In this document: piece after piece, positions 1,118 to 34,641 of the stretch
Position numbering within the stretch: position 1 is the stretch's first letter
Layout of the letters: every line of letters begins with the position of its first letter
DNA from: Kipferlia bialata
Lineage: Eukaryota
Assembly (NCBI GenBank): GCA_003568945.1
Contig: BDIP01000001.1
Location: 1 to 35,340 of the forward strand
Direction: 5' to 3'
Length of the DNA stretch: 35,340 nucleotides
Translations under genes and position numbers: made by a program
The notes under the pieces: generated by a model
The model's database searches: none
What the model was told of the DNA's origin: nothing
What the model saw: only the letters and a program-made list of their open reading frames with translations

Positions 1118-3008
1118 CTACCGCTGCATGGGCTTGGACACAACAGGGAGAGCACCGGGACGTGTGTCCTGAGGGTGGGAGAGGTGCCAGTATACATATA
1201 TATACATATACACAACTCACACATGTCTGTCCCCTCACCTTGGTGTTTACGATGTATCTCTCCCCGTGTCTCTGTCTGATGTGGGCAGGTAGGGCCAGAC
1301 CCCCGGAGGCAGGCATGAAGAGCTGGGTGACACCCTGCATACCAGAGGGAGAGAGAGAGGTGACCAGGTGGACATGGCCCAGGGGGGACACGCTCCACAC
1401 AAGGCCCACCCCCACAACACCAGCCTCACCCACCAACAGTACGGTCTTGCCTGGGGTGAGGGAGTGGGTATAGAGTGTATGAGCAGTGACACCCTCACGG
1501 TATGTACCCCACCTGCTATTGATGCCGCTGTGTCTGCCCCTGCCATGTCTCTGGATGATGACTGGGTCTGGCCTGCAAACACCACAGACACAGAGGAGAG
1601 AGGGCACCTGGGGGGTGGGGGTGGGGAGGGGGGGGGGTACCATATATTGGCCTATGAATAGATATAGTATCACTAACCTGTACGCCGGCAGTCTCCCGAG
1701 CCCTGCCCATGGGCCATTGGACATGGGGCAGAGGGAGGGGTCTAGCCGTCTCAGGAGAGAGATGTCACGGACGGCCCGGGCACGCTTGGAGCCCTAGGGG
1801 TTAGGTATATCCTTACACTCACACTAATGAGATGTAGACTCCGAACCTTAGCTGCCTCACAGTCCAGGAGAACGCACCCGGATGGCAGCATGAGGGGGCT
1901 CAGCCTGGGGTGGGGGGGGGGGGGCAAGTCAGAGGATAGAAGAGAGTAGGATAGTACCCACGCACCTCCTGCTGCCCTCCTGCTGGAATGCACTCATGGC
2001 GGATGGGTGCCTCATCTCCACAACGGCCTGGGGGGACACTGCTCGGATCAGGGTGTCCAGGGCCTCAGACCCAAACCCAGTGTTCCACCCGTGTGCGTTG
2101 ACTACTAACAGTGCAGAGGGTGGGACACGGGTCAGGCACTCCTCAACGATGCTGAGGGTCAGGGGGAGTACTGAGAGAGAGGGGGGAGGAAGAGACATAT
2201 ACGCTACAAGAAGGAGTACAGGGTCTGCTATATACCTAGCATGCACCATGGGCTCCTCCCTGGGCGTGAGGTGTCCAAAGGGCAGACACACCACTGGGGC
2301 AGTGGACATGGAGGGGGCAGAGGAGTAGGGGGAGGTGAAGGGGGGGAGGGCGAGGGTGGCCTTGAACACAGACACGCAACACTGCGGCCCCCACTCACTC
2401 TGGCCGGGGTCTGCGTCTAGGATGTACACGTCCTGTCCGTGTGTGCTCAGCATCACATTGACCAGGGTCCTGGGGTCAGAGACACGGCAGATGTGATACA
2501 CAGTATATACACATCTATTACACATATATCATCACGCACCTGACAAATGCACTCTTTCCGGTGGATGTTGACCCAGTCACCAGTACCCTCTTGGGCAAGG
2601 TGGAGGTGGGTGCAGAGGGAGTGGGCTCCGCTGCAGTATCAGTCGCCACTGGGGTGGTCATATCCACATCGCCTCCCACAGGTGTCACCTCAGCAGTCTC
2701 CTTCTCCCTCTCTGCCTCTCTCTCTGCCTCCTGTGTGCATAGTTTGTGGCACAGACCCAGCCAGGCACTGGGGTGAGGGGTCTGAATGATACGATATGTA
2801 TACATACATACAAGAGACTTGGGAGGTGTATATGTACGTACCCAGCTGGCACCGGTGCATCGTTAGATATGCCAAAGGCCGCAGTGTCCTTGGCTAGGGA
2901 GTACTGCTTCCTGATCTCCTCGGGGGGGTGAGACACCCTGGGAGTCAGATAGGAATACTGCTAGCAGAATACAGGATAGGGGGGGGGGGGGGGGGGGGGG
3001 AGGGAGGG

Positions 3009-3043
<35 letters not shown>

Positions 3044-3625
3044 GCGGGAGAACATATGCAATTCCAACATCCAATAGAAAACACAATGACACCTTGTGCA
3101 TTGGGCATGTGGGTATCTGTCTAGCTATATAGATGTGTATACATACCTGTGCATGGGGCATGTTGGTATGGCCGGGGCAGGGATAACAGGCTTGACATCC
3201 ACCCTCACCCTCTCTCTCAGTGGAGGGTATGCACCAGGCTCAGTCTTCACTCTCTCTCTCTCTCTCTCTCCCCTGTCTCCCTGGCTGTCTCTAGACGGTC
3301 TAGAGGGTCTAGAATGTCTAGAGGGGGTGGAGGGGGTGGAGGGTGTAGTATCTCTGACAGAGGGAGCCTTGGCAAGAAGTCTATCTCTCACCAGCACCCT
3401 CTCCCCCTCTCTCCCTTGGGTACTGCGACCAGTCTGTGGGCTACTCACCCTCTCCTGCTTCACAGCAACCTCCACATACCCACGCTTGAGGGAAGGCTCT
3501 CGGGGTTCTCTCTCTCTAGGGTATGGATCTCTTGATGATCGAGGGTCAGCAGGTCCCAATCCCCTATGTCTCTCTCTCAGGGGCGGCTGTCTCTGTCGCT
3601 CCCTGCCTCTCCCTCCCCTGTCCAT
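1118..3625 (-). CDS. NOL9: Polynucleotide 5'-hydroxyl kinase Nol9/Grc3 (Clp1-like P-loop family), about 10 exons
   Basis: Walker A RVLVTGSTSTGKSAFVR|TLVN, Walker B YILDADPGQSEWGP, LLVVNAHGWNTGFG, and C-terminal GVGLVWSVSP..HVHLVT. Exon phases join consistently. ATG 3625, TAG 1118-1120. Confidence 0.85.
2979..3043. repeat. Long poly-G tract within a Nol9 intron
   Basis: About 65 nt of G with sparse A. Confidence 0.85.
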
Positions 3626-3872: not shown

Positions 3873-6800
3873 ATGGATACCAGAGGGAGTGGGGCCGGCC
3901 TAGACCCAGGCCTCGACTCTATCCTCCATCCACCGGCAGATCCGGCACCCAAGAGCGCCCCCAAGCCCCCTGGCGTGCCTTCTGAGCAGCGGGAGGGAGT
4001 TGTATCCTCCTGGAGCACTGGGAAGATACTCTCCCCCCCCACCCACGCCCCAGTAGCCGCTGGGCTTGGTGTTGTGCCCTTCTCACACTCTGGCAGACAC
4101 ATAGGCCACACACACCTGCCCGGCATGTCGCCATATGACACACCCACCTCTGTCACTGAGGCAGAGGGTACTAGTGTCCCCGCCAGTGAGGGTGCTAGTG
4201 TACCTGCTAGCGAGGGTGCCTCCAGTGTTGCCAGTCCCGTTGTGAGTGGGTGGTACAGTGAGACCAGCACTGAGGCAGTCACTGAGTGGAAGACGGAGGG
4301 GTCCAGTGGTGTGGTCACCCCCCTGTCTGTGGTGGATGTGCCATGGCAGATAGTGACGCCATACTACACTGCTACGGCATCCGGGACAGCAGAGGTACAG
4401 CATATATATGTATGGCCACTCTCTGTACATACCCACGCGCCGCGCCCTCCCCCCCCCCTACTATGTACATGATTGTGTTTCTTCGCAAGAGAGTGTGACC
4501 TGGGCAGCCCCCCCCCCCCACTCCACACACACACACTCTCTTACTTTCTCCTGTTTTCCTCACCCTCTAGGTCACCAACCTCCGTGTGCCCACCCCCACA
4601 CCAGAGGCACTAGCCAAGGTATGCATCCATGCCTCTGTTACTATCCATCACTTACACTCTCTATATACTATGTCTCTCTGCTTTTACCCAGGCCAGGGAG
4701 GGCTTTGCCTCAACATCCACAGGGGCACACCCTATTAGTGCTAGTGCCCCTGTCCCTGACACCACTGCCAAGGTATCAGTGATAATTATATATGAATAAT
4801 AATAAAATTATATGTATACCACCGTTAGTCCAGTCCAAATCTCCATCCCCCCTCGTCTTGTCTGACCCCCAGTCCTCCCCTCCCCCCTGGCTGTCCAAGG
4901 CCATGCAGGAGGACAGTCCTGTTCCTGATGGCAAGGTGTATATATATATATATATACATATATGTATATATACAGATAGATGTGTGTATTAGTCCAAGGC
5001 CATGCAGGAGGACAGCCCAGTGCCAGGGGGAAAGGTATATTTACTCAGACACTGTTATTCGCATTGCCTATGTATGGAACTACCCCCAGGTCACCCCTTC
5101 CCTGGAGACCTTCCTGACCTGTGACCCAGGGGAGGCAGCACAGGAGGCGGTGGAGCAGGGTATGCATTTGTATATATAATGTATATACATGATAGAGTAT
5201 ATATGTGTATACTTGCTGACCCAGGCCCTCTACCCAGTGACATCACCATGGTGTCTGCTGGCCATGACCTCAGCATAGTCTATGGGGCAGGGCAGGGGGA
5301 GGCAGAGAGAGAGGGGGACCACCCTAAGGTACACCCTCCCTGTAGTCATATACTGTCACTGACACTATCTCTTCATCTCTTTGTATACTCCAAAGGTACT
5401 CTGTTGTAGGGTGTTACACACAAACTATGCCTTACCTCCAGCCCACTGCCACCCCCCCTGGCAAGGAGCATGACTCAGAGGTGTGTATAGACTGTGTTTA
5501 TATAGTATATATGTGTGTATGATTGGTATTGTGACATATACAGCCTCCTACCCTTGGCAAGGAGCATGACTTAGAGGTACACATTGTGTGTTTGGTATAG
5601 AGTGCATTCATTCACGTCTATCCAGTGTGACTACAGTTTGAGGGTCTTACCCCCAGGTGAGTGACGCTGCAGCAGAGGCAGTTGCAGAGGCAGAGAGGGA
5701 GAGGGAGAGAGAGAGGGAGAAGACAAAGGCTCCTGCCGCACCCCTGACCCCCCCTGGTCTCTCTGTCTCCCCAACTTTTGAGACCAAGGGAGAGGCTGAG
5801 GGAGAGGGAGAGACTGTCCCCAAGACAGAGGATGTGGCAGAGAGAGTGGTACCTGTACCCAAGGCCAAGGGCAAGGCTAAGTCTAGGGCCAAGACCAAGC
5901 GCAGGGTGCTAGGGAAGGGCAAGAGACCCCCTGCCCCTGTCAGGGTGGAGGAATCACCACCTGCACCTCCTGCAAAGAGGTATGTGTACATATATACTAT
6001 ACAATATATAGTATATATAGTGTTATATACTCATATATATGTGTATGTCTTTGACAGTAGGACCAGGCCCATTAGAAGGGTTGTGCAGAAGATGCTGGAG
6101 AAGAGGGAGAGAGAGGCACAGGCCAAGAGGGAGAGAGAGAGAGAGACCCTGGAGAGAGAGATGTCCCAGGAGGCTGATGTGGATGACATTGTGCTAGAGG
6201 AGGAGGAGGAGGAGGAGGTCAAGGCCATTCCCATCCCAAGGTGGGTATTAATCGTGTAGCTTCATGAAATTATGCACTATACACAAGTACAGGACCAATG
6301 GCTCTATATGGATGTGTGTATACTTACATATCTATGTGTATATATACCCCTAACCCCAGGGCCAAGAGGCCCAAGAAGGAGAGGGGCAGGGCCAAGACTA
6401 AGAAGAGAAGCCCGGCAAAGAGACGCCCAGGTTTGTGTCCTATTACGGACTGTCTATATACCCCTCTGCCTTACATACTAATATCCAGGCATGCGTGGCC
6501 GTAGCTCTCTGGCCACCACCAGTGCCTCCCCCTACGTGTCTGCCCCTCCCTCCCCCTACGAGCCCTCTGACACTGAGACAGACTACATTGAGGTATCACA
6601 CGGACCCGCCAAGTGCGAGGCAGCACTGCTCAAGGTACATATTTACTCGGGTACTCATTATGTCAAAACTTTGGGGTTGACGTGACCAATCTGAATTAGT
6701 GGTCGTCTCTTTCTCTCTCTCTCTCTCTCTCATACCCTAGGAGTGGCCTGACCACTCTGAGTATGTGGTTGTCTCTTTCTCTTTCTCTCTCTCTCTCTCT

Positions 6801-6964
6801 TTCATACCCCAGGAGTGGCCTGACCACTCCGAGTATGTGGTAGTGTCCAGGGCAGACATGCCAAGGAGACTCCTCAAGAGATGTGCAGACCTGGCAGAGG
6901 AGCACACAGGTAGGGGACTCTCTCTCCCTCTCTCTCCCTCTCTCTCTCTAAATCCCTGCCAGTC

Positions 6965-6999
<35 letters not shown>

Positions 7000-8062
7000 C
7001 TCACTCCTAGGCCAGTGTGCCAGTGTGGATGACCTCCCCCCTACCAAGAGACTGTCCCATCATCAGAACATGTTCCTCTTCAGAGTGCAGGAGTCAGGTA
7101 CTATCTCTCTCTCTCTCTCTGTCTATATCCTCACCAACAAGTTTCCCCTCCAAATCCATGCACTCATCTCTCTCTCTCTCTCTCTATACTTAATGATATG
7201 TATTAGTGTATACTAACTGTAGGCCTCCCCCGCACTGACAGACACCCCTCCAAGGCCATGCACTCTGACCCAGCTGCATTCTGGGACAGGGTCAGGGGGT
7301 ACATTGCATTCAGGTACGATGTACCTGAATACACCTGGATATAGAGCCCTATGTAGTACCTAACACACCCCCTCACCCCCAGGTTCATTGATGAGTACGG
7401 CTTCACCAGGGCATACATCATCGAGTGCCATGTCAGGAATGAGTACAGGAGGTATGGATAGTGCAATACCCCATCTCTGTATATATATATAGTATGTATA
7501 CATACACTTGTATATTGTTACCAGCGCAGTGTCAGGAATGAGTACAGGAGGTATTCGAAGTATACATACTCTCTCTCTCTATCTGTATGTCTATTCATTC
7601 TCCATTCAGTCTTCTACTCTCACTTCAGACAGAGCCATGGCTCTAAGATGATGGATGCCATGGATATGATCTCTCTCTCTCTCTCTCTCTCTCCATACAT
7701 ATACCCATATGCAACACCTGATATGCAGGCAGAGCCATGGCTCCAAGATGATGGATGCCATGGAGTTCTCTTTTCTCTCTCTCTCTGCATTCTATCAGTG
7801 TATATATATTCACACTCTGATATGTAGGCAGAGCCACGGGTCCAAGATGATGGATGCCATGGAGGTGATAGTCAGGGACCTCGGTATGGACCAGGTGGGT
7901 AATCAGGTCTCTCTCTCTCTCTCTCTCTCGCTGTCTCTCTCTTGCTGTCTCTCTTCCCCTGCCTAACCCAGGTTGCCCTCACTGTACACAACGACAACAA
8001 GGCAGGAGTGCACTTCTACAACAGGTACTAGGGAATAGCGTATTTGTATGTTTTATGTACTG

Positions 8063-8104
<42 letters not shown>

Positions 8105-8203
8105 ACTGATGTCAGGCTAGGCTTTGTGCCTGCCTTTGAGAACCCAGACGATGACCCCACCTGCACATACACCATCATGAGCAAGGATGTGCCAGTGGAG
8201 TAG
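3873..8203 (+). CDS. Multi-exon protein with long low-complexity N-terminus and C-terminal GNAT acetyltransferase domain (Naa40/NatD-like)
   Basis: Spliced C-terminus RVRGYIAFR|FIDEYGFTRAYIIECHVRNEYRR|QSHGSKMMDAMEVIVRDLGMDQ|VALTVHNDNKAGVHFYN|RLGF resembles Naa40 (F..FRFD.E...lYcYEiql....RrkGlGk.LM...VmLTVf..N..A..Fy). Upstream exons are phase-compatible. TAG 8201-8203; start codon less certain. Confidence 0.75.
4164..4235 (+). repeat. Coding tandem repeat, 3 x 24 bp (EGTSVPAS/EGASVPAS/EGASSVAS)
   Basis: Directly visible in the sequence and in the translation of exon 1. Confidence 0.8.
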
Positions 8204-8961
8204 GCTTAGGGACTTTGTTAAAGGGAGTGAGTGCACTGTGTGGTAGAGTCAAGGCTGTGCATTGGACATGCTCCAGAGGGTGATACACCATCATGAGCTA
8301 GGATGTGCCGGTGGAGTAGACTAGGGGATATACAAGTGGAGGAAGGTGGGGTGTACCTCTATTGTAAGTGGGGAGACATCCCTAATGACTAGTCTAATAG
8401 ACACTGAGGCAGCAGAATCAGTGACAATGAGTGGAACCGTCTATTCATTTACCTCCTTTCACTATAGACATGTGCAGGTCCATCAATATATCATATAGCC
8501 TGTCACGGCAGAAGACTGGAACAGCTTGTCATATCTCTACACAGATGCTACATGGACGCAAGTACATAATGAGGACAGACGTCCAAGGACACGCCCCCGG
8601 CCCTACTCAGTATCACACCACTGCAGCTGATGACTAGCGTCACAGCAGCATCGTGCAGGTACAACCGGTCACAGGCAAATAGGGGAGACTCTCGAGGTAT
8701 CAGATCACTGGTGGAGGTCACAGGGGACATGGGTATGTATCCTCCTACTAGGACGTATCCTGAAGGGGTCTCGAAGAGAGACTCGGTCTCGTCAGGGGTC
8801 CAAGACACACAAATGGCATCTACTCAAGGCCTCACTCTCTGACAATGAGGGTCCCGCAATGGCAGCGTCTACTCGTAGTGCCGCCCTAATGTCTGAGACA
8901 AGAGCAGAGCACATCTCAATGTGGAACAGTCCACAGTGATGAAAGCACTCTCTGTCTCTGC

Positions 8962-10103
8962 CTACTCGAGTGCCGCCCTGATGTCTGATGAGGACAGCTT
9001 GCCCCCTCCCTCTGCTCCCACCACAGGGATGGACACGACGGTGCAGGGGGGGAGAGAGAGGGAGAGGCGGGCGGCATCGACCATCGACACACAGCCCTGG
9101 GGGTGAGGGGGTTAGAGGCACTGGAGAGAGAGATGGGGTTGAGACTGAACCCTACACTGTATGCACCACTTTCCCTACCTTTGTCTCCTCTGACACTACT
9201 AGGTACCGTATCTGTGCGTCTGTGCCGACTGGGCCAAGGGCAGAGTGCAGGGGGAAGGGCACACACGACACGGGGGAGGAGGCATCATCCAGACAGGCCA
9301 TGTATGCAGAGACAGACTGGGCCCTGACAGCCCATGGCTCGAGGTGGTGGGAGTGGGACTGGGGTCAGTGATCCATATATATTGTATACCAACATGACAA
9401 TACACATATATACACTATCCATATATAATATGTGGTGGGAGTGGGAGTGGGACTGGGGGTGAGTGATCCATAAATATAGTACGCCAATATAACAATACAC
9501 ATATATACACTATCCATATACATTATGTGGTGGGAGTGGGAGTGGGACTGGGGGTCAGTGGAGAATTAGTGTGCTATATATATTTTGATTGGATATCCAT
9601 TGTATCTATATACGATATAGGTGGTGGGAGAGAGGACTGCGAGTCAGGAGCAGTGATCCATATACGACTCTCTGACAACCTATATGTATAGATTCAATAT
9701 ATGATGGTGGCGGGACTGGGGGTATCAGTGAGAGAGTGGTACCGGTGTCCAAGAGATGTGACTGTGATGGATACCTTGTTGCCGGTGAGAGCAGACTCGG
9801 ACACCCCCACAGACACCGATGCCTTGCACCCCCTATCCAGCAGACACCGTGCCAGGGCATGGGCTGCAGAGAGGAGGCGTCTATGGCCATCATGGAGATG
9901 GTCAAAGGTGCCCCCGACTGCAACAACAACAGGCAGGGGGGAGGGGGTATCCAGAGTCACCCCACATGCAGCAAATGATGATGCAATGTCATCTGGAGGT
10001 TAGAGTGGTAGGCGTATCGCAGATACATACTCTCTCAACAATACCGGTACCGATACCGAATAGTATCAAAATCATACTAGGTACCATTATGAGGGCCAAC
10101 CAT
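8962..10103 (-). CDS. Phosphopantetheine adenylyltransferase (eukaryotic CoaD/Cab4-type, HxGH nucleotidyltransferase), 4 exons
   Basis: MVGPHN|DDIA...VAVGGTFDHLHDGHRRLL...VGVSESALTGNK|SHSHHLEPWAVR...GPVGTDAQIRYLVVSEETK|GC...GKLSSSDIRAALE*. All hallmark PPAT motifs are present (GGTFDxLHxGH, LVVSEET, KLSSS). Confidence 0.92.
9343..9730 (-). repeat. Five degenerate ~90-bp tandem units spanning the PPAT intron-2 acceptor and exon start
   Basis: GGTGGGAGTGGGACTGGGGGT[C/G]AGTG-like core at about 9343, 9440, 9535, 9620 and 9705. Neighbouring intronic sequence (caatacacatatatacactatccatata) is also repeated. Confidence 0.85.
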
Positions 10104-11745: not shown

Positions 11746-13778
11746 TCACTGAGTGCACTGGCTGCGGGGTATGTACTTGGGGGGGTTGGTCACAGACCGG
11801 CCATCCCTAGGGTTGATACGCATATAACTATCAATCTATATATATGATGTTAATATATAATGCCCCACCTTGTGTTTAGTATGCAGTCCAGACAGAATGG
11901 CTCCTCTGAGGATAAGGACACAGACACGCAGGTGGGGGGTCTCTGGCTGCCCTTCTTGGAAGCCCCCTTGCCCCCCTTGCCCTTGCCACTCTTGCCACTG
12001 ATGAGGTCTAGCACCCTGCTCTGGGCCCTGGCCACACTCAGCCTAGGGTAAGGAAGAGAGAGAGAGAGGGAGAGAAAGAGAGAGAGTCCCCACACTGCTC
12101 TGGGCCCTGGCCACGCTCAGTCTAGTGTGAGAACGACTTACATACACAGACACATACATATATATGGAGAGAGAGATACCTTGCTGCGAGTAGGAGCGAT
12201 GGCCCAGCCGCACACCCCGCCTTGTCCTCCTCCTCACTCCTAGCACTCCTGACGGGTATCCTGCCCCTGCCTGTCTCTGTGTCTAGGCGTCTGGCAGCGG
12301 CACAGTCCTCTGGGTATCAGATAGATACTCTATCTACAGATATATAAATGCCACTCACTCTTTGTGGGCCTAGACGCAGCTATTAGCCACGTCGGGGGTG
12401 CCACCACGGTGGGGTCAAAGGTGTTCTCTGCCCCCCCTCCCCTGCCGACCCTTCCATCGTAGTCATGCACCGTATCAGGAACGGCAGAGGGTGCGACAGG
12501 GAGCTGGCCCCTAGAGTGAGGAGGGAGAGGGATATGTAAAGGGAGAGAGAGTGGAGACTATACCTCCCGACCCTGATGAGGTCATTGAGGTCCCTTGTGA
12601 ACTGCTCCACCACTGTCCTGGGCTTGGGGACACTGCCCTTCTTGATGCCCTGCCTGGTGTTCCACACAACCTGGGGGTCAATAGATATGGAGGGTACTTT
12701 TAGTACAACAACATTACACAAACTGGGACACAAGCACAACTTGCATGTAATTGCTATATACACAAGACACACCTTGGGAGTGGGCACCCATGCAGCATTG
12801 GCAGCCACAGAAAGGTCTCCGTTATTGACCTGGGGATCAGATGGAGACAATAGGAGCAAGAGTCACTAGGAAACCATCCCTCACCTCGAGTGCCCTCTCC
12901 CTCAGGTCCATGCATATCTCTGGGTTCTTCTTGCCCTGGCCTATCAGCCAGCACACCCTGTCCCTCACCTCGGGCAGCATCGACAGACGGGCCTGCGGTC
13001 AGGGTCACATACACACTCAGACACATACACTGTCCGCACATTATTATCAATGGGAAGCGTTGGTACACGTACCACATCATCTGCGCTGCCCAGCCTGTGG
13101 TTGGTGTGTGCCGAGCACATGCTGCCAATGACCCACTGGTGGGGGGGGACACCGTCCAGGCGTCTCTCCACCATGATGGAGTGGCAGCAGCCCACAGCAG
13201 TGTACCCAGAGTGGCCAGTGTGGTGGCCTGAAGAGTGAGAACAGAGACCAGTATCGGGAGAGTGGTAAGCATGGCTGACCCATTGTCACAATATGAATAC
13301 TGGCCTCACCTTCAGGAACTGCCTTCAGCTCTTGAGAGCTCTCAGCTGTGAGGGCAGCAGTAAGAGAGCCAGCATTGAAGGATGCCCCAGCGTTCTTGCC
13401 TCCTGACAGGTCAGATACGGAGGATAGAGAGAGAGGGACTGCAGAGAGCTGAACCAGAGATGCTATACGGACAATGATGAACACATGGTCCCCACCTGCT
13501 TTAGCAGTGATGCGGGGTACTCCAGACCTGAAGCAGTTCAGAATGATCTTCTGGTCCTTCTTCCGCTGAGTGCGAGCTATTCCCCTCCGGATGGTGTACT
13601 GAACATTGTATTGCTTCTTCACACTGACGAGCCAATCATGGAGAGCAAGGTATGGGTTCGCCGCGTCATATGGAAGCGTAATTGGGAAGGACGGCCCGTC
13701 CTCACACACCATCCCATTCTGAGGCACCATCCTTAGCCTATAAGGACGTCTGTCTATCTCACGGCCATAGGGTCCCAT
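11746..13778 (-). CDS. FAR1/AFT-like (WRKY-GCM1 superfamily, Mutator-transposase-type) zinc-finger DNA-binding protein, about 10 exons
   Basis: Spliced: ..KQYNVQYTIRRG...KIILNCFRSG...GYTAVGCCHSIMVERR....QWVIGSMCSAHTNHRLG..ARLSMLPEVRDRVCWLIGQG, i.e. the C.R.G / GC / W / HxxH pattern followed by the helical segment seen in MULE proteins. No DDE core seen. The 3' end is uncertain (TGA 11746-11748, or a further exon to about 11560). Confidence 0.65.
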
Positions 13779-13873: not shown

Positions 13874-14672
13874 ATGGGCTGCGGATCTTCTACCCCTACC
13901 ATCGACGCCCTTCTCCCCAAGTCCACCAACCAGTACGTGTGGTTATATATTATAGGGATCAGGCCCAGTTACAGGAGGAGACACTCAGTGTACTGTATGT
14001 ACTGTATTTTCTCACACTCAGGGTAGTGCTCTTCAATGGAGAGGAGGAGACTCTGGCCATCCTGAGGACTGCAGTCGCTACCCGTACGTGCTATATGTGA
14101 TATATTTACGGTTTAGTGGCTGTGTGTGCGATGTTTATATATAGATCTGTTGATGCTCACCCTCAGGCACTGATATGGCCATCACTGAGCTGGTTGAGGT
14201 TGGAGAAGGAATCACCCCTGTTACCGACACAATGGGTATCCCTACCGCCGTCATTGGTCAGGAGGCCCGTGTTATTGTTCCCTGCCCACCAGGCACTGCT
14301 GCCCCCGCCACTGGAGAGTGGGTGGTTGTCAGTGGCACTGCCGGCAGTGAGGCCGACATCTTTGTCTCCCTCAAGGACTTCATCGTGCCAGAGGTTGTGG
14401 ACAAGGTAGAGGATATCGTTGCCCCCACTGAGGAGGCTGCCCCCGCTGAGGAGGTTGCTGAGCCTGTTGTGGAGCCTGTCGCTGAGGAGGCTCCAGTTGA
14501 GGAGGCTCCAGTTGTGGAGGCCCCTGTTGAGGAGGTTGCTGAGGAGGCCCCAGTGGAGGAGGCCGTTGAGGAGGCCCCTGTGGAGGAGGCCCCTGTAGAG
14601 GAGGCTGCTGAGGAGGCTGCTGAGGAGGCCGTTGAGGAGGAGGCTGAGGCTGTTGAGGAGGCCGCCGAGTAG
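13874..14672 (+). CDS. Small protein with MGCGSS N-terminus (predicted myristoylation and palmitoylation) and acidic EEAPV-repeat tail, 3 exons
   Basis: ATG 13874 MGCGSS; introns 13933-14021 and about 14084-14166 restore the frame into ORF 14175-14672. E/A/P/V repeats at about 14430-14669. Confidence 0.8.
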
Positions 14673-15517: not shown

Positions 15518-16078
15518 ATGCCCCTTTGCGCCACCGTCAAGACTGAGATCCCCGAGGGAGTGACCGTTGAGGTCAACAAGCGCCTTGTGCGTGTCACCGG
15601 ACCCCGCGGAGTCGTGGAGCGTAACTTCAAGCACACCTCCCTGGAGATGACCCTTGAGGGAAACACCGTCTCCGTCAGCTCCTGGTTCTCCAGGAAGAGA
15701 GACGCTGCTCTCTGCCGCACCATCATCTCTCACATCGAGAACATGGTCACTGGAGTCACCAAGGGATTCCGTTACAAGATGAGGCTTGTGTACGCTCACT
15801 TCCCCATCACTGCCAACGTCTGTGACGCCGGTGCCCGTATCGAGCTCCGTAACTTCTATCACGAGACCAAGATCAGGTCCGTGCCCATGCTCCCCGGTGT
15901 GACCATCTCCATCTCCACCACCCCCAAGGATGAGCTTGTGCTCGAGGGAAACGACATCGAGAACGTGTCCCTGTCCGCCGCTCTCATCAACCAGTCCATG
16001 AAGTGTGCCAACAAGGATGGACGTAAGTTCCTTGACGGTGCCTACGTTTCCTTCCGCGGAACCATGGACCAGCTCTAA
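15518..16078 (+). CDS. RPL9: 60S ribosomal protein L9 (uL6), intronless CDS
   Basis: IPEGVTVEVNKRLVRVTGPRG, GVTKGFRYKMRLVYAHFPI, KDELVLEGNDIENVS, NKDGRKFLDGAYV are diagnostic of eukaryotic uL6. Highly biased codon usage. Confidence 0.97.
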   Translation: MPLCATVKTEIPEGVTVEVNKRLVRVTGPRGVVERNFKHTSLEMTLEGNTVSVSSWFSRKRDAALCRTIISHIENMVTGVTKGFRYKMRLVYAHFPITANVCDAGARIELRNFYHETKIRSVPMLPGVTISISTTPKDELVLEGNDIENVSLSAALINQSMKCANKDGRKFLDGAYVSFRGTMDQL

Positions 16079-17408: not shown

Positions 17409-19847
17409 ATGTATCCCCAGTATGGTTCGTCCTATGATCCGTCATTACCTAGTTATATGGCCCCTGTACCGGACACACAGCCTACTAGCAACATCCTGTA
17501 CCGAGATGACCCAATGCCGTACAGTTCTGCGTACAATCCGTTCGGATCCGTGCCGGCTGATCCCTACCTGCAGCCTATTCAGCTGAGTGACTCCCCCCCT
17601 GAGCCCTATCTCCCCTATCTCCCACCCCCTGTGTCTACTGGTGTGCCAATTCCACCTTCTGGACCCATTCCCCAGTACTCCCCCCCCGCAGCCCCTCCCG
17701 CTTTCCCCCTCTCCCCCATTGAACTGCCCCAGGGCTCCCTCCCCACCTCGGCCCCCTTTGCTTCCCGGGCCTCCTTCGGGGGGTACCAGCCAGGCTACCC
17801 CGTGAACCCAGCAGGGTTCAGGTACTCTGGTCCCCGGCTGGACCCCCTTGGGATTGAGGCCCCAGCCCCTGCCCCTGCCTACACCCAGCCCCAGTTCATG
17901 TCCCGGTACAGCCCCCATACCCAGGGCACCACGGGGGGCATCAAGCCGCTGGCCAACACATTCAACCCCCGCGCACCCCCTCCCACATTCCCCCAGCCCC
18001 AGCCAGGGGCACAGTTCCCAGCGCATGTGTCGTATGGGTCCAGGGTGGAGGTATGCCTCACCATATATGAATTGTATTGTACTCTCTCTCTCCCTCTCTC
18101 TCTATGTGTATGCTTAGTGTTTGTGGGTGCCCCAATATCTACTATAATAATAACCCCAGGGTGTTGTGGGCCAGGCTCCATGTATATCTGTGTCTTCATA
18201 TATATATATATATGTATATATATGTACACTACCCTGTTGTATATATATCCATAACCCCAGGGCGTTGTGGGCCATGGCTCCATCGGGTCCCGGTTCCTCA
18301 TTCCCAACTCAGAGGGACTCAGGGGCAGGAAGCAGGGCAGGGACATTGGGGACTACAACCCAGAGGTATATATACACATATATATATAGTCATATCATTT
18401 ATATATACACGCATATATATAGGGCAGGAGGCAGGGCAGGGACATCGGGGACTACAACCCAGAGGTAAGAAGTACATATATATACACACATATATACATC
18501 ATGTATCCTTGTCTTGTATAGGACTGGAAGCAGGCCTTTGCCTAGCTGGTGGATCACCCTTACTCTCCCCCCCTCCCTCCCTCTACTCCAAGTATATTTG
18601 TTATCCTCGCTAAATCAGGCCCGTGCCCAGCTCCTGGCTCCCTCCCTCCATTCCACCTATATTTGTAATTGGTTTATCTATAATAATAATCCTCTCTGTA
18701 ATCCCATCTATAATCGTATCTGACTCAGGCCCGTGCTCAGCTCCTGTCCGACTTCTATGCACACAGGACACACCGCATACACACCAGGGAGATCAAGTGA
18801 GTGCGCCTTACTCTTATTGGTGCTCATATACCTGAGTTATTCTCAGTATATTTGTATTCGTCCCTCTGTGTACTCTCTGTGTGTCTTACCTCATATACAC
18901 AGTCCCTCTCTCACTGCCAGGTATGCTGTGAGGCAGAAGCTGGCTAGCAGTGACACTATCACTATCATATCATACACGTTCTATTTCTATAGTCCTACAT
19001 GTCATATCATATCATATCTCTCACTGCCAGGTATGCTGTGAGGCAGAAGCTGGCAAACTCGAGGGTCAGAGTGAAGGGAAGGTATGGGTATCACTCTCAT
19101 AAGTGAATATGCATATAGTATGTGGGTGTGTATGCATTTCCTGACCCCCAGGTTTGTGCGTAAGGGTGAGGAGGCCGAGGTCAAGGCCGAGAGGGAGAGA
19201 GAGAACCAGCCTGTCAAGCCAGAGCCCCAGCAGAGGCACACCAACCCGCCCACTCAGGTATAGTCCCCCTACACACCATCCTATAGCTCTATATGCATTG
19301 GTATATATGTATCTGACGTGTCAGGACGCCAAGCGCTCCCACCGTGAGTACGAGCCCCCATCGGCCTCTCAGTCCCCCACTGGCTCTGAGAGCACACAGG
19401 GGGAGAGAGAGGGAGGGGACGGGGCAGGCCAGGTGGATCTGGAGGATCAGCTCAACATCGTCAGCGTCATACCAAGGTATGTATATCACTTAGACATCCG
19501 TGTGTCAATATATGTGCTACTCGCTAACTATTCCAACTCTGACCCCCTAGGAATGTGCCCACCAAGGCCTCCCTCTCTGCCTCCTTCATGCGCCTGTCCA
19601 TCAGTCTCTCATCGCTACCATTCACAGGCGCCAAGAGGGGACTGGCAGAGCGCTCAGTCTCTCAGGTAGTATATATCCACAGTGACCATATCCCCAGTCA
19701 CCATACTGTTTATGAGTGTATCTATTGTGTGTGACTGACCCCCAGGTTGCAGTTGGCCCCCAGTCTGCCACTCCCTCCCTCTCTGACGTCGACTCCATGA
19801 CAGTGCCCTTCGAGACAATAGCAGACGTCGTCATCGAGGATGACTAG
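17409..19847 (+). CDS. CCT-motif protein (CONSTANS/CO-like/TOC1 domain) with Pro-rich N-terminus, about 8 exons
   Basis: Spliced IGDYNPE|ARAQLLSDFYAHRTHRIHTREIK|YAVRQKLANSRVRVKGR|FVRK matches CCT (iG.YspeeR...i.ry..KR..R.f.+.IkY..Rk.lAdsRpRv+GRF). TAG 19845-19847. Confidence 0.85.
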
Positions 19848-20566: not shown

Positions 20567-20614
<48 letters not shown>

Positions 20615-20615
20615 T

Positions 20616-20648
<33 letters not shown>

Positions 20649-21539
20649 TCCACTGTTTCATTATCTGAACCCACCCACCAGGCCAATGGCAATAGTCTCT
20701 GTCTTCCCTTGTAAATATGGGTGTCTATGTATCTGGTCTCACTGTGTATTTCCTCTCTCTCTCTCCCTCTCTTCATACAGACTCTCACCACTTTCCTGAA
20801 TTACCCTGTCTCTGGCTCTCTCTCTCTCTCTCTCTCCCCCTCTCCCTCCATCTCTATATACTCACACCAGTGACATTAATACCCTACCCTTATCATGTCC
20901 TCCCTTCCTCTCTCTCTCTATCCCTCTCTTCGATCAAGACTCACTGCCTAGACGTGATGTCCCTAGCTCTCTCTCTCTCTCCCTCCCTCCCTAACCCCAG
21001 TGGCATAGACACCATGTCCCCTGTGCCTGGTCCCTCTCTCTCTCTCTCTGTAATATATAGATACACATTTCTTATCTCAGTGGCATTGACACCATGTCCC
21101 CCGTGCCTTATCCCCCCTCCCCTCCCTATATATATGTATACTATATACTCTATACTAGGATATACACATATATTCTTATCTCAGTGGCATAGACACCATG
21201 TCCCCTGTGCCTGGCCCCTCCTCCCCTCCCAGACACAGGGTGGTATTAGTGTCCAATGAGACACTGGTACCCACAGCAGAGAGGAGGTATGCTCTGTCTG
21301 TCTGTGTCTGATTATTATCTATTACCTCTACTCCCGATGTGATGTATGTATCTCTTCACAATCCTGATTCTCGGGAGTGACTATGTTCTCCTTTCTTAAC
21401 CCTCTATGCACATTGCCGACCTGTTGGTAACAACGCTGATAAGCAGCTTCCTCTCTCTCGCTCTACATGTGCATAGTATAATGTCTGACCCGAGTCGTCC
21501 TGTTGACAATAACAATGCTGACAAGGCCATCAAGGCCCT

Positions 21540-21576
<37 letters not shown>

Positions 21577-24500
21577 ATATATATTTCATGCATCTGACTC
21601 CTAGCCGTCCTGTTGACAATAACAACGCCGACAAGGCCATCAAGGCCCTCCTTCGCATGATGTGTGAACAGCTGGACGGGGTCAAGGTCCTAAGAGACAA
21701 GTGAGTGACTGAGTGTGTATATACATACTCTTAGAGTACCATTCACCCCAGTCGTCAGCTAGGCCCGATGCTTCTAGTCTTCGACAGTATATGAACATTA
21801 GTACATCTATATATGGATTTGGATACATTGGGGTAGCCTTTCCCCCTCACCCCAGGCGTCAGCTAGGCCCCATGCCCCTAGTCTTTGATGTCCTGTACCC
21901 TTTATCCAGGACAGACACATACAACTGGACACCGGCACAGCTCACAGAGTGGAGGTATGGATACAAGTACATACAGTATATACTGTGGTCTTGACAACTA
22001 TAAATGTAAGGGTACAGTTCACACTATGACCACATCTTCTCTGAACACCCACACAGCTCACAGAGTGGAGGTATGGATATGTGACTTGATTGCAGTATGG
22101 ACAAAACTACCAAGTGCTTATTGTTGTTTCTTCTCTATTATTTGTGTATTATGTATATTACTATTGTATATATCTGTTTCTTTACGCTGCCTCCTTCTCT
22201 TTCTGACCCTAGGCAGGACCGAGGCTACTCCAGGCCCCTGATACCCAGGAAGCACATCGAGGTAGGGGACAGTTATATACCTATATATACTATTACTCCC
22301 TTATAGTATATGCAAATAGAGGTAGGGGACAGTTATGCATATATATATAGTATATAGGTTGGAGACAGGGTAGCACCACCTCTCTTCACCCACCCATGAA
22401 GAGTGTGATACTGACTAGGATAATATGAATATGTAAGTATAAGAGTGGGTGTGTATGTGTAAGTATCTGACCCCAGGACACTCTTCACGAGTACCGGCGG
22501 ATGCTGCAGGAGAGGGAGAGAGACACCGAGGCAGGGGGAGAGGGAGAGAGGGATAGAGACCTGCTAGACGAGGGGTCTGACTATGAGGGTATAGGCGAGG
22601 GTGCGGAGAGGGAGAGAGAGAGAGACATGGACATGGACATGGGCCTTGTCTCTGGTGTCTCTCCCACTGTGAATAAGGGTCCAGGGGCAGTGACACAGAC
22701 GGACAGAGCACTCACCAACACAGACATCATCATGTTGTTTAATAGGTCGAGGTGTGGGATCTACGCATTGTATGAGTTGATCCATTTCCTTTTGTGTATA
22801 CATACACCTCACCCCAACTCCCTGTATATAACCTCATCCCCTCCTTCAAAGAGGTGGTCACAGAATATGGCAGTATATACAATGTCACATACTCTATCAC
22901 TTTCTGTAGAGACGAAATTACTCTTTTCCTAACCCCCAGTTCTCTCCTCCCCTCCTTCACTGACGGTCTGGTCTCCTTTCTGTTCATGTATATATATATA
23001 TATATTCGTCTCTCACCCTAGCTCCCTCCTCCCTTCCTTCCCTGATGGTCTGGTCACCTTCCTGTCCATGTTCCCTAGGTGCAGGACACATCTCACGGTG
23101 GTGTGCCACAAGACACTGACAGAGGTATTTATGCTATGTATACTAATGATATGGTATGCTTAGTAAGTAAAGATATATGGGTGGAGATAATGTGTATAGT
23201 GTCTATTGCACACCTGACCGTGGTGTGCCACAAGACACTAACAGAGGTATGTATAAGATATATATAGATGTACACATGTGCATTTTTGTTTATGTATACC
23301 CATCCCACCCCAGACCCCCCTGCTTGAGCTGACCCGTACCTGTGAGGCCATGTGCATACCACTCACACTCGTCAACAGCATAGGTACATTGATGTATAGT
23401 ATGTACAGAGTACAGTATACTCATATACTCATATATATATTGTGGACTGTGTTTCGGCTTCCAGTACACAATTCTCTACTCCAGCCTTTCTATTCATCCA
23501 TATATGTACTCTCTAACTACTCATTCCACCAGCCCTCTGTATATACTCACCCGTCAGCCCACCTTGACAGGCTGTGCTCCAGTGTGCTGTCCTCACACAC
23601 AGCCAGGGCATCGGTGCAGACAACACTGAGAGGGGCACTAGGTATATAGGGACATATATATATATGTATGAGAAATATATTTACATTTATATGAGTGTAC
23701 AGCAAGGGCATCGGTGCAGACAACACTCAGGGGGGCACTAGGTACGGTTGTATATATATATATGTATGTAAACATATATAGAAGTATACACTCAGGGCAT
23801 GGTAGTTGTATGTATAATATTTACACAAGACATGTATTTGTATGCCCTCTCACTATCAGTTGTTGGGTGTGCCACCGGTGCCAATGCCGTCCCCCTAGAG
23901 ATCATGGGCCCTGAGGGGGTATTGGAACAGCTGGTGGGGAAGGGGGCAGAGGTGGGGATTTACAATAACTGATACTACACTAGATAGGTATATAGGTACA
24001 CTACACAGTATATATGTATATATACCATGGGGTGCTGGAACAGCTGGTGGGGAAGGGGGCAGAGGTATGGGTATGAGTATATAGTTATACTATGCACTCC
24101 TATCTCTTCTTTCCTCTGTAAACCAGTGACATAGTTAGGTTGTGTCTCCCCCTTACCCTCAGACTTCTTCTGGACCCCGACCCCCTCTCCCCTCCCACCT
24201 CTCTGCCCATGCGTCCACCCATGCCTCCATGGCACAGGCATCTGCATACACAGACGACCACTCCTACAACGATATGGAGATGTCACACAGTCACAGCGTG
24301 ACACATAGGGGGTCAGAGAGGGAGAGGGAGAGTAGACATGGCAGGAGAGAGAGGAGGGAGAGTGGGGGTGTGCCTAGTGCTGGGTCCAACCTTCCCACTC
24401 TTGAGATGCAGGTGGCGGAGCAACTAGGGTACGCAGTGGCTCTCTCTCTATCTCTCCTTCTCTGTCTCCTATCGTATCTCTAACCCTCTAGCTGTGCGTG

Positions 24501-25003
24501 TATACTGCTGGTCTCCACCAAGGCAGCCCTCAAGCCAGCACTCGACGCAATAGGTACAGTTGGGTGAATAATGGTGTTTTCAGTGGATATTCTGCGAATA
24601 GTAGAGCAGGATGAATATAGCCGTATTCATAGTAATGGTGTATCTCTGATCCTCTAGGCCGTGCAGCAGACAGGGGCGGTGAGGCCGGTGCTGTGCTGCG
24701 AGTGGATGTGTGTGGACAGGAGATAGACTGGTGGAAGCAGGTACAGACATGTATGTGCATATATACATTCCAGGTTGAGCAGCACCTGTGTCCCTTCTAT
24801 ATATCTCTCTCTGTCCCTCTGTGTCTTTACATTCGTATATATATATCGTTACATTCGTATATAAGTATCCCCCTCATTGATAGGTTGAGCAGCACCTGTG
24901 TGGCAAGCACCTCTCTGCGGTGTGTGTGTACAGGGACAGTGTGGTGCCTGTGGTGCTGTCGGTCAGGGAGAACGACATATCGGTGTCCATCATACCCACG
25001 TGA
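20173..25003 (+). CDS. Large hypothetical multi-exon protein (about 14 exons); one exon probably missing near the poly-C tract at 20568-20646
   Basis: A phase-consistent chain of GT-AG exons runs from 21185 to TGA 25001-25003. Exon 1 (ATG 20173) does not join in phase to 21185. No domain recognised. Confidence 0.6.
20568..20646. repeat. Long poly-C tract
   Basis: About 80 nt of C with a few T. Confidence 0.85.
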
Positions 25004-31305: not shown

Positions 31306-31349
31306 GGGGGGGGGGGGGGGGGGGGGGGGGGGGGTGGGGGGGGGGAGAG

Positions 31350-31388
<39 letters not shown>
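31306..31388. repeat. Long poly-G tract
   Basis: About 80 nt of G with sparse A/T. Confidence 0.85.
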
Positions 31389-31389
<1 letters not shown>

Positions 31390-32264: not shown

Positions 32265-34641
32265 ATGGCCCATACGACTGTGACGCTGCGGAAGGTCCCT
32301 CTACCCTGTCATGGCTGTTTCTATGACTGTGGCACTGCACTGCTGTCGGATAGATCAGTGATGGTGGTGGGGATGAATGAGAGGTGTGTCGGTATTGATT
32401 CCATATATTGTATATACCATACTATATGTCAGCTAATTGTCTGCATAAGAATCTTGTGATTAGAGTATTGCAGGAGCAGGCACAAGTCAAATAATCACAT
32501 TTGAGTGTTAACCCCCCCCCCCCCCTGAATTGTTCTGTAAATACAACACCTCGTTACAATTCCAAATCCTCGGACCCAACTATAGCAACATATACTTGTT
32601 GTCAATGGTCTCTCTCTCTCTCTCTGTCTACTCCCCCCCCCCACCATCTCTCTCGCAATTCTTCCCCATAGGGAGATTGAGCACGGTGACACACACCGCC
32701 ACCCCTGTGCCATCATATCCCTATGCACTGAGGGAGACACCCTGACACTACAGGCTACCCCCAGCCCTTCCCCTGTCAATCCACTTGTGTATGGCTGTAT
32801 AGTGGCTAGGTATGGGCTGAAGAATTCATGGATGTCTCTTTGTTTGCAGTTGGGCTCTGGGTATACTTCATTAGACATATAGATATATTAATTTTTAGAA
32901 ATATGTGCAATCGTTCTACCCTGTGTCACTAATACATTGATCATTCTCCCCCTCCCACCCTAGGGTAGGCCCGCACGTGTATGCGTTTGGCGGGTTTGAC
33001 GACTGGTCTGATGTGTTTGTCAGTGAGCTGCACCGATACACAGTTGACACAGACACGTGGGAGACAGTGGGGGGGCTGGACGCTAAGGAGGTTTGTACTA
33101 GTGCATCATACATCTACACTGTATATATATATATATACATAGACTGTGGACTCAGTCACCTGGGAGATTGTGGGGCTGTGGTCGAGAGATGTGTGGTATC
33201 TTTCACCTATATTCACAAATACATAGTATACTAGTACCAGGAAGTTCAGACATTGAGCCTCAATGATTGGGTTGAAGAACATACTCTTGTGACTGCAGAC
33301 TTGACTCACTCAGGTGAAGGCACGGATTAACTCGGGAGATTCCCTGGAATACTCCCTACATGGAAACACATGGCCTGTTCCTAGGTACAGTGCAATATGA
33401 ATGTGATCTCAAAACACTCCTGATACAATGTGTATCTGCACAGGTTACCCAGGAGGAGAATCCGCTGAAGACTCTTGAGCTTAGCTGTTCTCACCGCCAG
33501 GGGGGGTTGGGAGTATGAATGTGTTGGTGTGGGAGGACTGTTTATGGTGTCAGGTATGTATATGTAAACGTACAGGTTAATATTAGTGGCTATACCACTC
33601 CCACCCTCTAACTAGCCAAGGTGGTACAGACAACGACGGAGCTATTCTCCATGACACATGGGTGTATGACCCATCCACTGCGGTGTGGACAGAGGTATGA
33701 ATGTATACATATATACATGTGTGATATAGTAGGTGTGTATCTAGGCACATGCTGGTGTTGCCCTCATTTGGGTATTTTCGGCGCCCTATACCACGTACAT
33801 ATCATATATATAACGTTGACCTGGCTGGACACCCAAATCAGTCTCAGTGGATACCAGTCCATTGTGCCAGAATCAGTACTAGTGCTAGTATTAGACTTTG
33901 TATGATACTACCATTCAGGTGGACACCGGTGGTACAGTGTCTTGCCCAGATGAGGACCAACAGTATACCCTGATAGGTATGGGTGGCAAGTACCCAACAT
34001 TCAAAGAATGAGTAAGAACTTGCTATTTCAGTCTGATTCTAGGCGAATGTGAGTGCTTTGGGCACATATATCGGACATTCCACCTCTATGAGTACTGTAA
34101 AGCAGCAACAAGCGCAGCTGAGCCTGTAGAACAGGGATATGTTGGGGTTTGGACCACCACACCTACTCCAATCAGCGTCACAAGCGCAGTGGTTCTTACT
34201 CTACCCAGGTATACTGAGTGATAAGATAATTCCTTTGTACAGTATATATGTAGGCTACTTACTGCTCTTTCAGAGTATTTGACACCGTGATACAGTGTGT
34301 AAGAGGGCAGACACCATACTGAAAGTGAGCGCGACTCTCCCTCTCATCCCAGGACACGCATTCTGCTTGATGGCAAGGGTACCTACCACTGCCTAGATAC
34401 TGTATCTGGGGAGTGGTCCCCTGGGGCCGCGCCAGTACTCGAGGGAGCCGTCTCGAGGTGTGTGTGCATATCGATAGCTTGTTTCATTTGCCATACATGA
34501 TTGTGTGTTGCCAATACCAGCCGGGCCTTCTCCGAAGGCTCGGTCTGCATGTTCGGGGGAGAGTGGTCCATGTATGGGGTCTGTCATACCGCTGCTGGTA
34601 CGATGCTTGTCACAGTATCGCAGGAGGAGGATATCGTGTAG
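32265..34641 (+). CDS. Intron-rich Kelch-repeat protein
   Basis: VGPHVYAFGGF...SELHRYTVDTDTW, HDTWVYDPSTAVW, HCLDTVSGEW in spliced exons. TAG 34639-34641; some 5' exon borders uncertain. Confidence 0.72.

Follow-up and report, generated by a model that had tools for sequence, protein, structure and literature searches.

Why do introns of Kipferlia bialata carry partial copies of the exon edge beside them, and why do these copies differ from the exon largely at silent sites? The question is raised by contig BDIP01000001.1 (GenBank assembly GCA_003568945.1), of which positions 1 to 35,340 of the forward strand were analysed; this whole stretch of 35,340 nucleotides (nt) is called the window below. 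The organism is a free-living fornicate with 124,912 introns, a short-read SPAdes assembly and a ploidy given in the genome paper as diploid from two k-mer peaks (PMC5874029). The window is intron-dense with a GC content of about 50%. The copies, here named echoes, belong to tandem duplications of roughly 100 bases, each spanning a single exon edge, and are spliced out. Their main host is gene G, modelled as follows:

21185-25003, forward strand: gene G, modelled as 13 exons (5' end tentative) that read open as far as a TGA
21185-21286, 21605-21700, 21856-21954, 22213-22261, 22477-22751, 23022-23124 and 23314-23383, forward strand: exons 1-7
23558-23641, 23860-23951, 24163-24428, 24492-24553, 24658-24740 and 24884-25003, forward strand: exons 8-13

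A spliced RNA contig of 2056 nt aligns to nine of the 13 exons as separate pieces, its length fits the rest, and the reading frame of gene G is fixed by this support. None of the 11 exons searched singly matched Pfam, and the protein is of unknown function. The echoes identified in this gene, with their differences from the exon, are:

21001-21036, forward strand: far acceptor-side echo of 21185-21220, 1 synonymous, AG kept
21081-21126, forward strand: near acceptor-side echo of 21185-21230, 3 synonymous and 3 non-synonymous, offset 104
21416-21445, forward strand: older degenerate echo of exon start 21605, 3-nt deletion, AG lost, 14.4 bits, uncounted
21495-21539, forward strand: acceptor-side echo of 21605-21649, 3 synonymous and 0 non-synonymous, offset 110, fading into (TC)n
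21752-21784, forward strand: acceptor-side echo of 21856-21888, 3 synonymous and 2 non-synonymous, offset 104
22041-22070, forward strand: donor-side echo of exon end 21925-21954, 1 synonymous and 2 non-synonymous (one a TGA), offset 116, GT kept
22312-22353, forward strand: short donor-side duplicate of 22252-22293 (10 exon nt and the intron start), offset 60, sub-threshold, uncounted
22940-22989, forward strand: acceptor-side echo of 23022-23071, 5 synonymous and 3 non-synonymous, offset 82
23209-23246, forward strand: donor-side echo of 23087-23124, 4 synonymous and 0 non-synonymous, offset 122
23699-23741, forward strand: donor-side echo of 23599-23641, 3 synonymous and 0 non-synonymous, offset 100
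24029-24064, forward strand: donor-side echo of 23916-23951, 2 synonymous and 0 non-synonymous, offset 113
24774-24791, forward strand: acceptor-side echo of 24884-24901, identical over 18 nt, offset 110

The array formed by 21001, 21081 and 21185 has a patchwork similarity among its units, and one DNA unitig runs from the echo at 21081 into the exon (21064-21211) without differences. By eye, faint and far older copies of exon start 21185 seem to extend upstream of 21001 through 20770-20990, for instance at 20871; the long intron before 21185 may be five or six stacked units.

The survey comprised seven modelled genes; the genes at 10.3-11.3, 16.5-17.1 and 25.9-35.3 kb lay outside it. Alignments anchored at the edge compared 117 exon edges (57 acceptors, 55 donors and 5 stops) with the adjoining intron or 3' flank, and a score of at least 18 bits was called an echo. 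Echoes were identified at 22 of the 117 edges; in the control, 0.03% of 5986 comparisons with non-adjacent introns reached 18 bits. The exon-edge echo pattern is solid in these 35 kb. Outside gene G the echoes are:

4992-8319, forward strand: seven echoes in gene A, with ends or starts at 5034, 5576, 6741, 7550, 7629 and 7729, and at 8319 past the stop codon
9361-9560, reverse strand: acceptor-side array in gene B of 95-nt units, two of which agree at 90%, intron DNA included
12091-12121, reverse strand: acceptor-side echo in gene C, 2 synonymous and 1 non-synonymous, offset 79
18160-18944, forward strand: four echoes in gene D (18160, 18422-18464, 18619 and 18921), 3 synonymous and 1 non-synonymous
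3094-3116, reverse strand: donor-side echo in gene E, 2 synonymous and 1 non-synonymous counted (one-base shift before the GT), offset 53
8283-8319 (the gene A echo past the stop codon) and 8877-8896: echoes of the last codons of two convergent genes, in their 3' flanks

A further weak donor-side echo was seen at 33036-33072 and 33139-33175 (offset 103, 27 bits), in a gene that by its motif we take to be kelch-like. In repeat scans the region 25.9-35.3 kb, where genes are unmodelled, was nearly echo-free.

The codon count comprised 23 pairs of echo and exon, 14-50 nt each and 769 nt in all. It leaves out the gene B array (ambiguous register), the gene B slippage unit (three matches of 15-17 nt), the 14.4-bit match at 21416, gene H with its provisional model, the final exons of C and E, and gene I, whose five scanned edges are echo-free and whose model is off by one base. 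The frames of genes B to E follow open-frame continuity only. There were 47 synonymous and 20 non-synonymous differences (70% synonymous), 51 of the 67 lying at third positions. The pooled ratio of non-synonymous to synonymous differences per site (pN/pS) was 0.165, with a 95% bootstrap interval of 0.09-0.25, where neutral decay would give at least 0.5. Under a null in which the echo decays at all sites and the exon drifts at silent ones, 38-49% of differences should be synonymous, and the observed share departs from this with P between 7e-8 and 4e-4. A first-pass annotation of this DNA, made from its letters, had taken about three quarters of random changes to be non-synonymous; the synonymous share so implied, 25%, is too low. 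Its description of the differences as almost only synonymous was also overstated, since the share over the whole set is 47 of 67 and the bias, while real, is weaker. The four pairs it cited stand where it placed them and all 13 of its codon differences are in the sequence; 12 lie inside the aligned echoes and are synonymous, whereas the last (CTC/CTG at 21650) sits at the break. These are the cleanest pairs. Three others within the same coordinates were omitted and hold 7 replacements (21752/21856, 3 synonymous and 2 non-synonymous; 22041/21925, 1 and 2; 22940/23022, 5 and 3).

The bias is found in gene G alone, the gene checked by RNA (25 of 35 synonymous, P 0.002), in the genes other than G (22 of 32, P 0.002), in the 15 pairs absent from the first-pass annotation (26 of 42, P 0.009) and when one echo is counted per edge (42 of 60, P 5e-5). 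It is weakest far from the edge, with 9 of 15 synonymous beyond 30 nt (P 0.22). When neutral decay was simulated with identical trimming, a share of 70% was reached in none of the 400 runs made at each of three divergences (51-90 differences) and in 2 of 400 at the lowest one, which produced only 27 differences. The spread of synonymous counts among pairs shows no overdispersion (chi2 20.6, df 22), a comparison of low power. Non-synonymous differences are directional, with GC in the exon and AT in the echo in 14 cases against 4 of the reverse (P 0.03), and synonymous ones run both ways (20 against 15). The two comparisons of echo with echo gave 4 synonymous differences near the edge and 4 non-synonymous ones at the far ends. 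It holds, then, that echo and exon spent most of their divergence time as coding sequence, and the core proposal of the first-pass annotation, that every copy passed through protein-level selection, is supported by the pN/pS.

Rates that differ between sites could imitate such a history with no alleles involved, if exon silent sites changed several times faster than stranded or mutationally cold echoes, which would be frozen snapshots. This needs no hyperdiversity, which went unobserved, and the sequence is rich in GC at third positions (G or C at 190 of 259). In the extreme null where only C>T and G>A changes occur, the expected synonymous share rises to 58% and P to 0.024; C>T decay at GC-rich third positions was rejected as the full explanation. 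However, 17 of the 47 synonymous differences are transversions, and the intron DNA beside the echoes is the most diverged part, so that stranded DNA is not cold. We know of no process that lifts exon silent rates three- to fivefold over neighbouring neutral DNA, and this account is considered improbable.

Acceptor-side echoes stand upstream of their exon and donor-side ones downstream, and two echoes lie beyond stop codons. Offsets were scanned up to 900; the nearest ones are 53-122 nt with a median of 101, and 17 of 21 fall within 95-122. The AG or GT is preserved at 43 of 44 positions. In the adjoining 40 nt of intron there are 24.3 matches versus 22.0 for unrelated introns, and 7 of 24 flanks exceed the 95th percentile. 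Frequently an echo grades into a (TC)n or (TA)n run that its own sequence has seeded. Some edges have arrays of two to four units, in which distant units are usually more degenerate, and three pairs have no difference over 18-24 nt. Introns with an echo (n=18) measure 137-416 nt and those without (n=35) 28-215 nt, median 78; of 21 modelled introns above 130 nt, 18 contain one. Matches of at least 30 bits at offsets 45-260 over the whole window are all at exon edges, in echo arrays, or in one coding repeat, that of gene I at 14441-14672, which is the sole repeat above 30 bits away from exon edges. As echoes were also identified at two stop codons, a boundary of conservation seems to be the trigger.

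In the RNA contig, position 21700 is spliced to 21856 and 21954 to 22213 with GT..AG borders, and the echoes are left out. Four bins that lie over echoes, among them 23640-23776, have an RNA depth of 0; this is one RNA data set, and contigs drop rare forms. The run is presumed to be RNA, and its contig has GT..AG joints. The echoes are non-coding in this contig, as the first-pass annotation had stated. Could they still be translated in minor or stage-specific isoforms and be held by purifying selection? The AG or GT is kept in nearly all of them, and three donor-side echoes of gene A have an AG just upstream. Against this stand the skipping and the empty RNA bins, the annotated gene A protein, which is without echoes 5034 and 5576, and the make-up of the echoes, which are partial exons with one splice site. 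None was found to be a whole exon with both splice sites and an open frame in mRNA; they cover 14-50 nt of one edge. Some are also broken: echo 22041 by its TGA, one stop-codon echo (8283) by a new TAG and the other by a one-base insertion, and a gene D echo by a one-base loss after 18173. Such isoforms are therefore held to be very unlikely.

Silent upstream acceptors with an intact AG depart from the first-AG rule. A branch-like motif was identified in 4 of 13 echoes versus 4 of 12 of the used acceptors beside them, and branch-point strength does not explain the choice of acceptor. Recursive splicing was rejected, as most echoes do not start with GT. A reduced spliceosome has been noted for K. 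bialata (PMC6679479).

An assembler that concatenated two haplotypes would also place copies side by side, as the first-pass annotation proposed among its options, and offsets of about 100 nt resemble short-read lengths in an assembly made from short reads with SPAdes (PMC5874029). Unitigs were built from a DNA run that may be the assembly's own source; they are independent of its scaffolding. One unitig of 2141 nt spans 21812-23952, is letter-identical and contains four pairs of echo and exon, the echoes 22041, 23209 and 23699 lying in it with their exons, and another of 142 nt (23924-24065) links the exon copy at 23916 to the echo at 24029. Unitig depth, for which the first-pass annotation had proposed a check, is 422-498 over echoes and exons alike. 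The pair 21495/21605 is not bridged by a single unitig, because a (TC)n run splits it. The echoes are no assembly artefact: concatenation is refuted for the bridged pairs and its chance overall is negligible. The sole disagreement between unitigs and assembly is a unit missing from the latter. Unitigs of the 21758-21861 region include one of 84 nt at a depth of 1002, its neighbours having 477 and 487, and one of 80 nt at a depth of 557 in which 7 letters are different; both fit a loop of period 104, the 7 letters summing as 3+3+1, and the genome therefore likely has one extra unit there:

21758-21861, forward strand: collapsed 104-nt unit, 84 nt identical, with a 20-nt junction holding 4 other letters

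This unit likely stands twice in the genome and once in the assembly, and short-read collapse may hide the youngest echoes genome-wide.

The remaining accounts concern where two coding copies came from. Repeated duplication, collapse and conversion within one clonal lineage, which would swap the working edge and was a second option of the first-pass annotation, is in keeping with arrays of two to four units, older ones more degenerate, in which unit number is still changing. In one lineage, however, a single copy works as the edge at a time and replacements accumulate in the other. All 343 simulated parameter sets gave a pN/pS of at least 0.42 (0.42-1.01, median 0.65), and none of 10000 bootstrap replicates of the observed ratio was as high as 0.42; the simulation was a simple one, with 36-nt units, at most 5 units and sequential fixation. 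On this model clonal cycles appear largely refuted and are given little credence, about as little as the isoforms. As the simulated values lie outside the observed interval, both copies must have spent most of their divergence as coding sequence on separate chromosomes.

An allelic origin of the echoes, by either of two routes, is considered probable. The first route, which has a slight edge over everything else taken together, is that the pairs join two strongly divergent alleles through break repair templated on the homologue and finished by end joining. Repair of a break would invade the homologue within the conserved exon, synthesis would copy on into intron that does not match, the copied strand could not re-anneal, and end joining would close the break and leave a duplicate edge as the echo. 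We infer these individual steps. An unequal crossover between two divergent homologues would yield this product too, and the two routes are indistinguishable here. Tandem duplications are reported to arise from failed annealing in synthesis-dependent strand annealing (SDSA) with polymerase theta joining (PMC8654963), and in a hypervariable fungus crossovers fall in exons (PMC4209137). The genes listed for K. bialata include Dmc1 (4 gene ids), PolQ, Spo11 and XPF but not Rad51A, and non-homologous end joining (NHEJ) is given as absent from metamonads (PMC8516963); Dmc1 stabilises mismatched heteroduplex (PMC6719624). The pN/pS of 0.165 is allele-like, close to the allelic ratio of 0.12-0.13 of Schizophyllum commune (PMC4576712). 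When divergence is split into an allelic part and later decay, the silent allelic divergence is 0.16-0.32 and the age of the echoes 0.003-0.038 substitutions per site. The directional replacements and two-way silent differences would fit decay laid over an allelic difference, and the pairs appear young at coding sites and old in the intron, as expected of two alleles. Capture from divergent alleles or homeologues, the other option of the first-pass annotation, thus fits best; it is inferred, with no donor exon at 80% likeness.

The second route, overlooked by the first-pass annotation, is ordinary duplication followed by allelic recombination. Tandem duplications of the same allele would be identical at birth, and later crossing-over or conversion between alleles in a hyperdiverse population would have swapped the working exon. 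The same pN/pS would result, the echoes would still be fossil alleles, and a special birth mechanism would be unnecessary. Copying within one allele does occur and weighs against the first route: the collapsed 104-nt unit has 84 identical bases and the 95-nt pair in gene B is 90% alike. The three pairs free of differences and the patchwork array at 21001/21081/21185 likewise speak of copying and exchange. Conversion confined to the exon, however, predicts near-identical intron flanks, and 17 of 24 do not exceed the 95th percentile. It also predicts a mix of identical and diverged pairs, and overdispersion is absent, at low power. Finally, 7-18 duplicates of 100 nt were expected in 6654 nt of intergenic DNA under uniform duplication of the same allele and 0 were found (planted ones were recovered in 59-60 of 60 cases), a test that assumes hand-drawn boundaries and tolerance of duplicates by intergenic DNA. 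Birth from two alleles is favoured by the unalike flanks, the lack of overdispersion and the lack of intergenic duplicates, and the second route is regarded as unlikely.

Several further observations count against birth from two alleles by repair. The donor alleles are unseen in the sample, although the genome paper reads diploid (PMC5874029): no second haplotype or paralogue of two exons of 21590-22250 was found at 80% likeness (5 of 5 aligned records accounted for), no contig at that likeness was a complete exon carrying an echo's silent variants, as the first-pass annotation had proposed to search for, and there are no bubbles in the DNA unitigs over 21.0-25.0 kb. The sequenced sample is homozygous or haploid over this region. 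A second strain was sought through the ribosomal protein L9 of the window; among the 120 proteins listed, of 1376, there were only its own record and relatives at most 59% identical, and among 15 of 126 candidate metagenome stretches identities were only 36-55%, so that none of these came from a second strain. The divergence needed, 0.16-0.32, equals or exceeds the record within-population value of 0.20 (PMC4576712), a level that suggests lineage hybrids or lost homeologues rather than ordinary polymorphism. If a duplicate was born from one allele, rapid microsatellite slippage could have scrambled its intron flanks later. The duplications published for the repair route have a median length of about 1 kb and not the narrow 100 nt seen here (PMC8654963). 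The diverged flanks obscure the junctions and any microhomology at them, and the 20-nt junction patch with 4 other letters comes from one young unit. Splicing ignores the upstream echo acceptors although their AG is intact, and the analysis comprises 35 kb and one sample.

Among known systems, the duplications left by aborted SDSA and polymerase theta in helq-1 and brc-1 mutants of Caenorhabditis elegans are head-to-tail direct duplicates of a template-copied stretch (PMC8654963). The echoes are likewise head-to-tail duplicates in genomic DNA, their intron parts being weakly homologous, and for K. bialata PolQ is listed and NHEJ is not (PMC8516963). The C. elegans copies are identical, about 100 bp to 10 kb long (median 1 kb) and found in repair mutants (PMC8654963), whereas the echoes measure about 100 nt, stand at exon edges only, occur in a wild-type genome and carry allele-like differences. 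Echo offsets (53-122, median 101) are at the low end of the published range; larger ones would break genes, and the scan extended to offsets of 900. In the Rogers model of intron gain, as in vertebrate ATP2A1, an intragenic tandem duplicate with splice signals is also spliced out and the protein unchanged, but there an exonic AGGT is duplicated and a new intron is made from identical copies (PMC3265369). In K. bialata an existing edge is duplicated, intron number stays the same, the intron lengthens by about 100 nt and coding-type divergence is found in the spare copy; no new intron of the Rogers kind was found, the RNA joints using one donor and one acceptor around the whole array.

The 37-bp variable number tandem repeat of human F7 intron 7 has a unit that spans the exon-intron boundary, and its downstream donor copies (5' pseudo-sites) are silent, a precedent for tolerating donor-side echoes (PMC1557585). 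It is one locus with identical short minisatellite units and donors only (PMC1557585), whereas in K. bialata 22 of 117 edges have echoes, on the acceptor side as often as on the donor side, and the units are diverged. In the hyperpolymorphic Schizophyllum commune, alleles are about 0.2 apart at silent sites with a replacement to silent ratio of 0.12-0.13, and exchange prefers conserved exons (PMC4209137, PMC4576712). Its crossovers are equal and were seen by comparing genomes, a word search of that paper giving no mention of unequal exchange or duplication (PMC4209137); in K. bialata a single genome supplies the divergence, with the alleles themselves unseen. Judged from titles and the starts of abstracts, no report was found of exon-edge copies with allele-like divergence, in K. 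bialata or elsewhere. Tandem duplicates within genes that splicing removes are already known. Internal gene duplication was reportedly treated by Gao and Lynch in 2009.

The other features of the window are:

3873-8203, forward strand: gene A, encoding the NAA40-like acetyltransferase KIPB_000003, whose long N-terminal region is of low complexity
8962-9992, reverse strand: gene B, cytidylyltransferase-like (PF01467, E 6e-4, just under the cut-off)
15518-16078: ribosomal protein L9 (uL6) gene, intronless despite the intron-rich genome

One exon of gene A matched the NCBI protein KIPB_000003 at 100% identity (UniRef name N-alpha-acetyltransferase 40), and the 18-exon model equals this protein except for 1 residue, because of a NAGNAG acceptor at 6058/6061. 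Across genes, 14 of 15 single exons had no Pfam match. Gene B carries the motif GGTFDHLHDGH, suggestive of a phosphopantetheine adenylyltransferase. At 18729-19180 gene D encodes a short basic motif that resembles a CCT domain; the single exon tested had no Pfam match. The end of gene I (14441-14672) is a coding repeat rich in Glu, Ala, Val and Pro, with units of 12-15 nt. Microsatellites of (GA)n within exons, such as 22510-22625 and 6105-6150, encode ERERER runs. Runs of C or G of 60-80 nt were identified at 20569-20647, 2978-3042 and 31306-31389 and are possibly poorly resolved in the assembly.

Sex is debated in the group of Giardia relatives. If birth from two alleles is true, highly diverged alleles recombine in a free-living member of this group, the question of sex becomes testable from one genome, and the echoes are a hidden record of outcrossing. 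The odd repair kit, Dmc1 without Rad51A and PolQ without NHEJ, would then be tied to a visible genomic signature. With an echo in most of the modelled introns longer than 130 nt, echoes also offer a mechanism of intron growth, and they pose the question of how a reduced spliceosome ignores an intact upstream acceptor. A bolder proposal, tentative and with a little less than an even chance, is that K. bialata, whose sole recombinase for breaks would be the meiotic, mismatch-tolerant Dmc1, repeatedly hybridised with strains 20-30% divergent at silent sites, and that repair templated on the homologue erased heterozygosity, each tract that runs past an exon leaving a scar of 100 nt. If so, most long introns would be stacks of fossil alleles, intron length would be governed by this process, allele pairs would number in the thousands within one haploid-like assembly, and diversity, outcrossing and selection would be readable without a second isolate.

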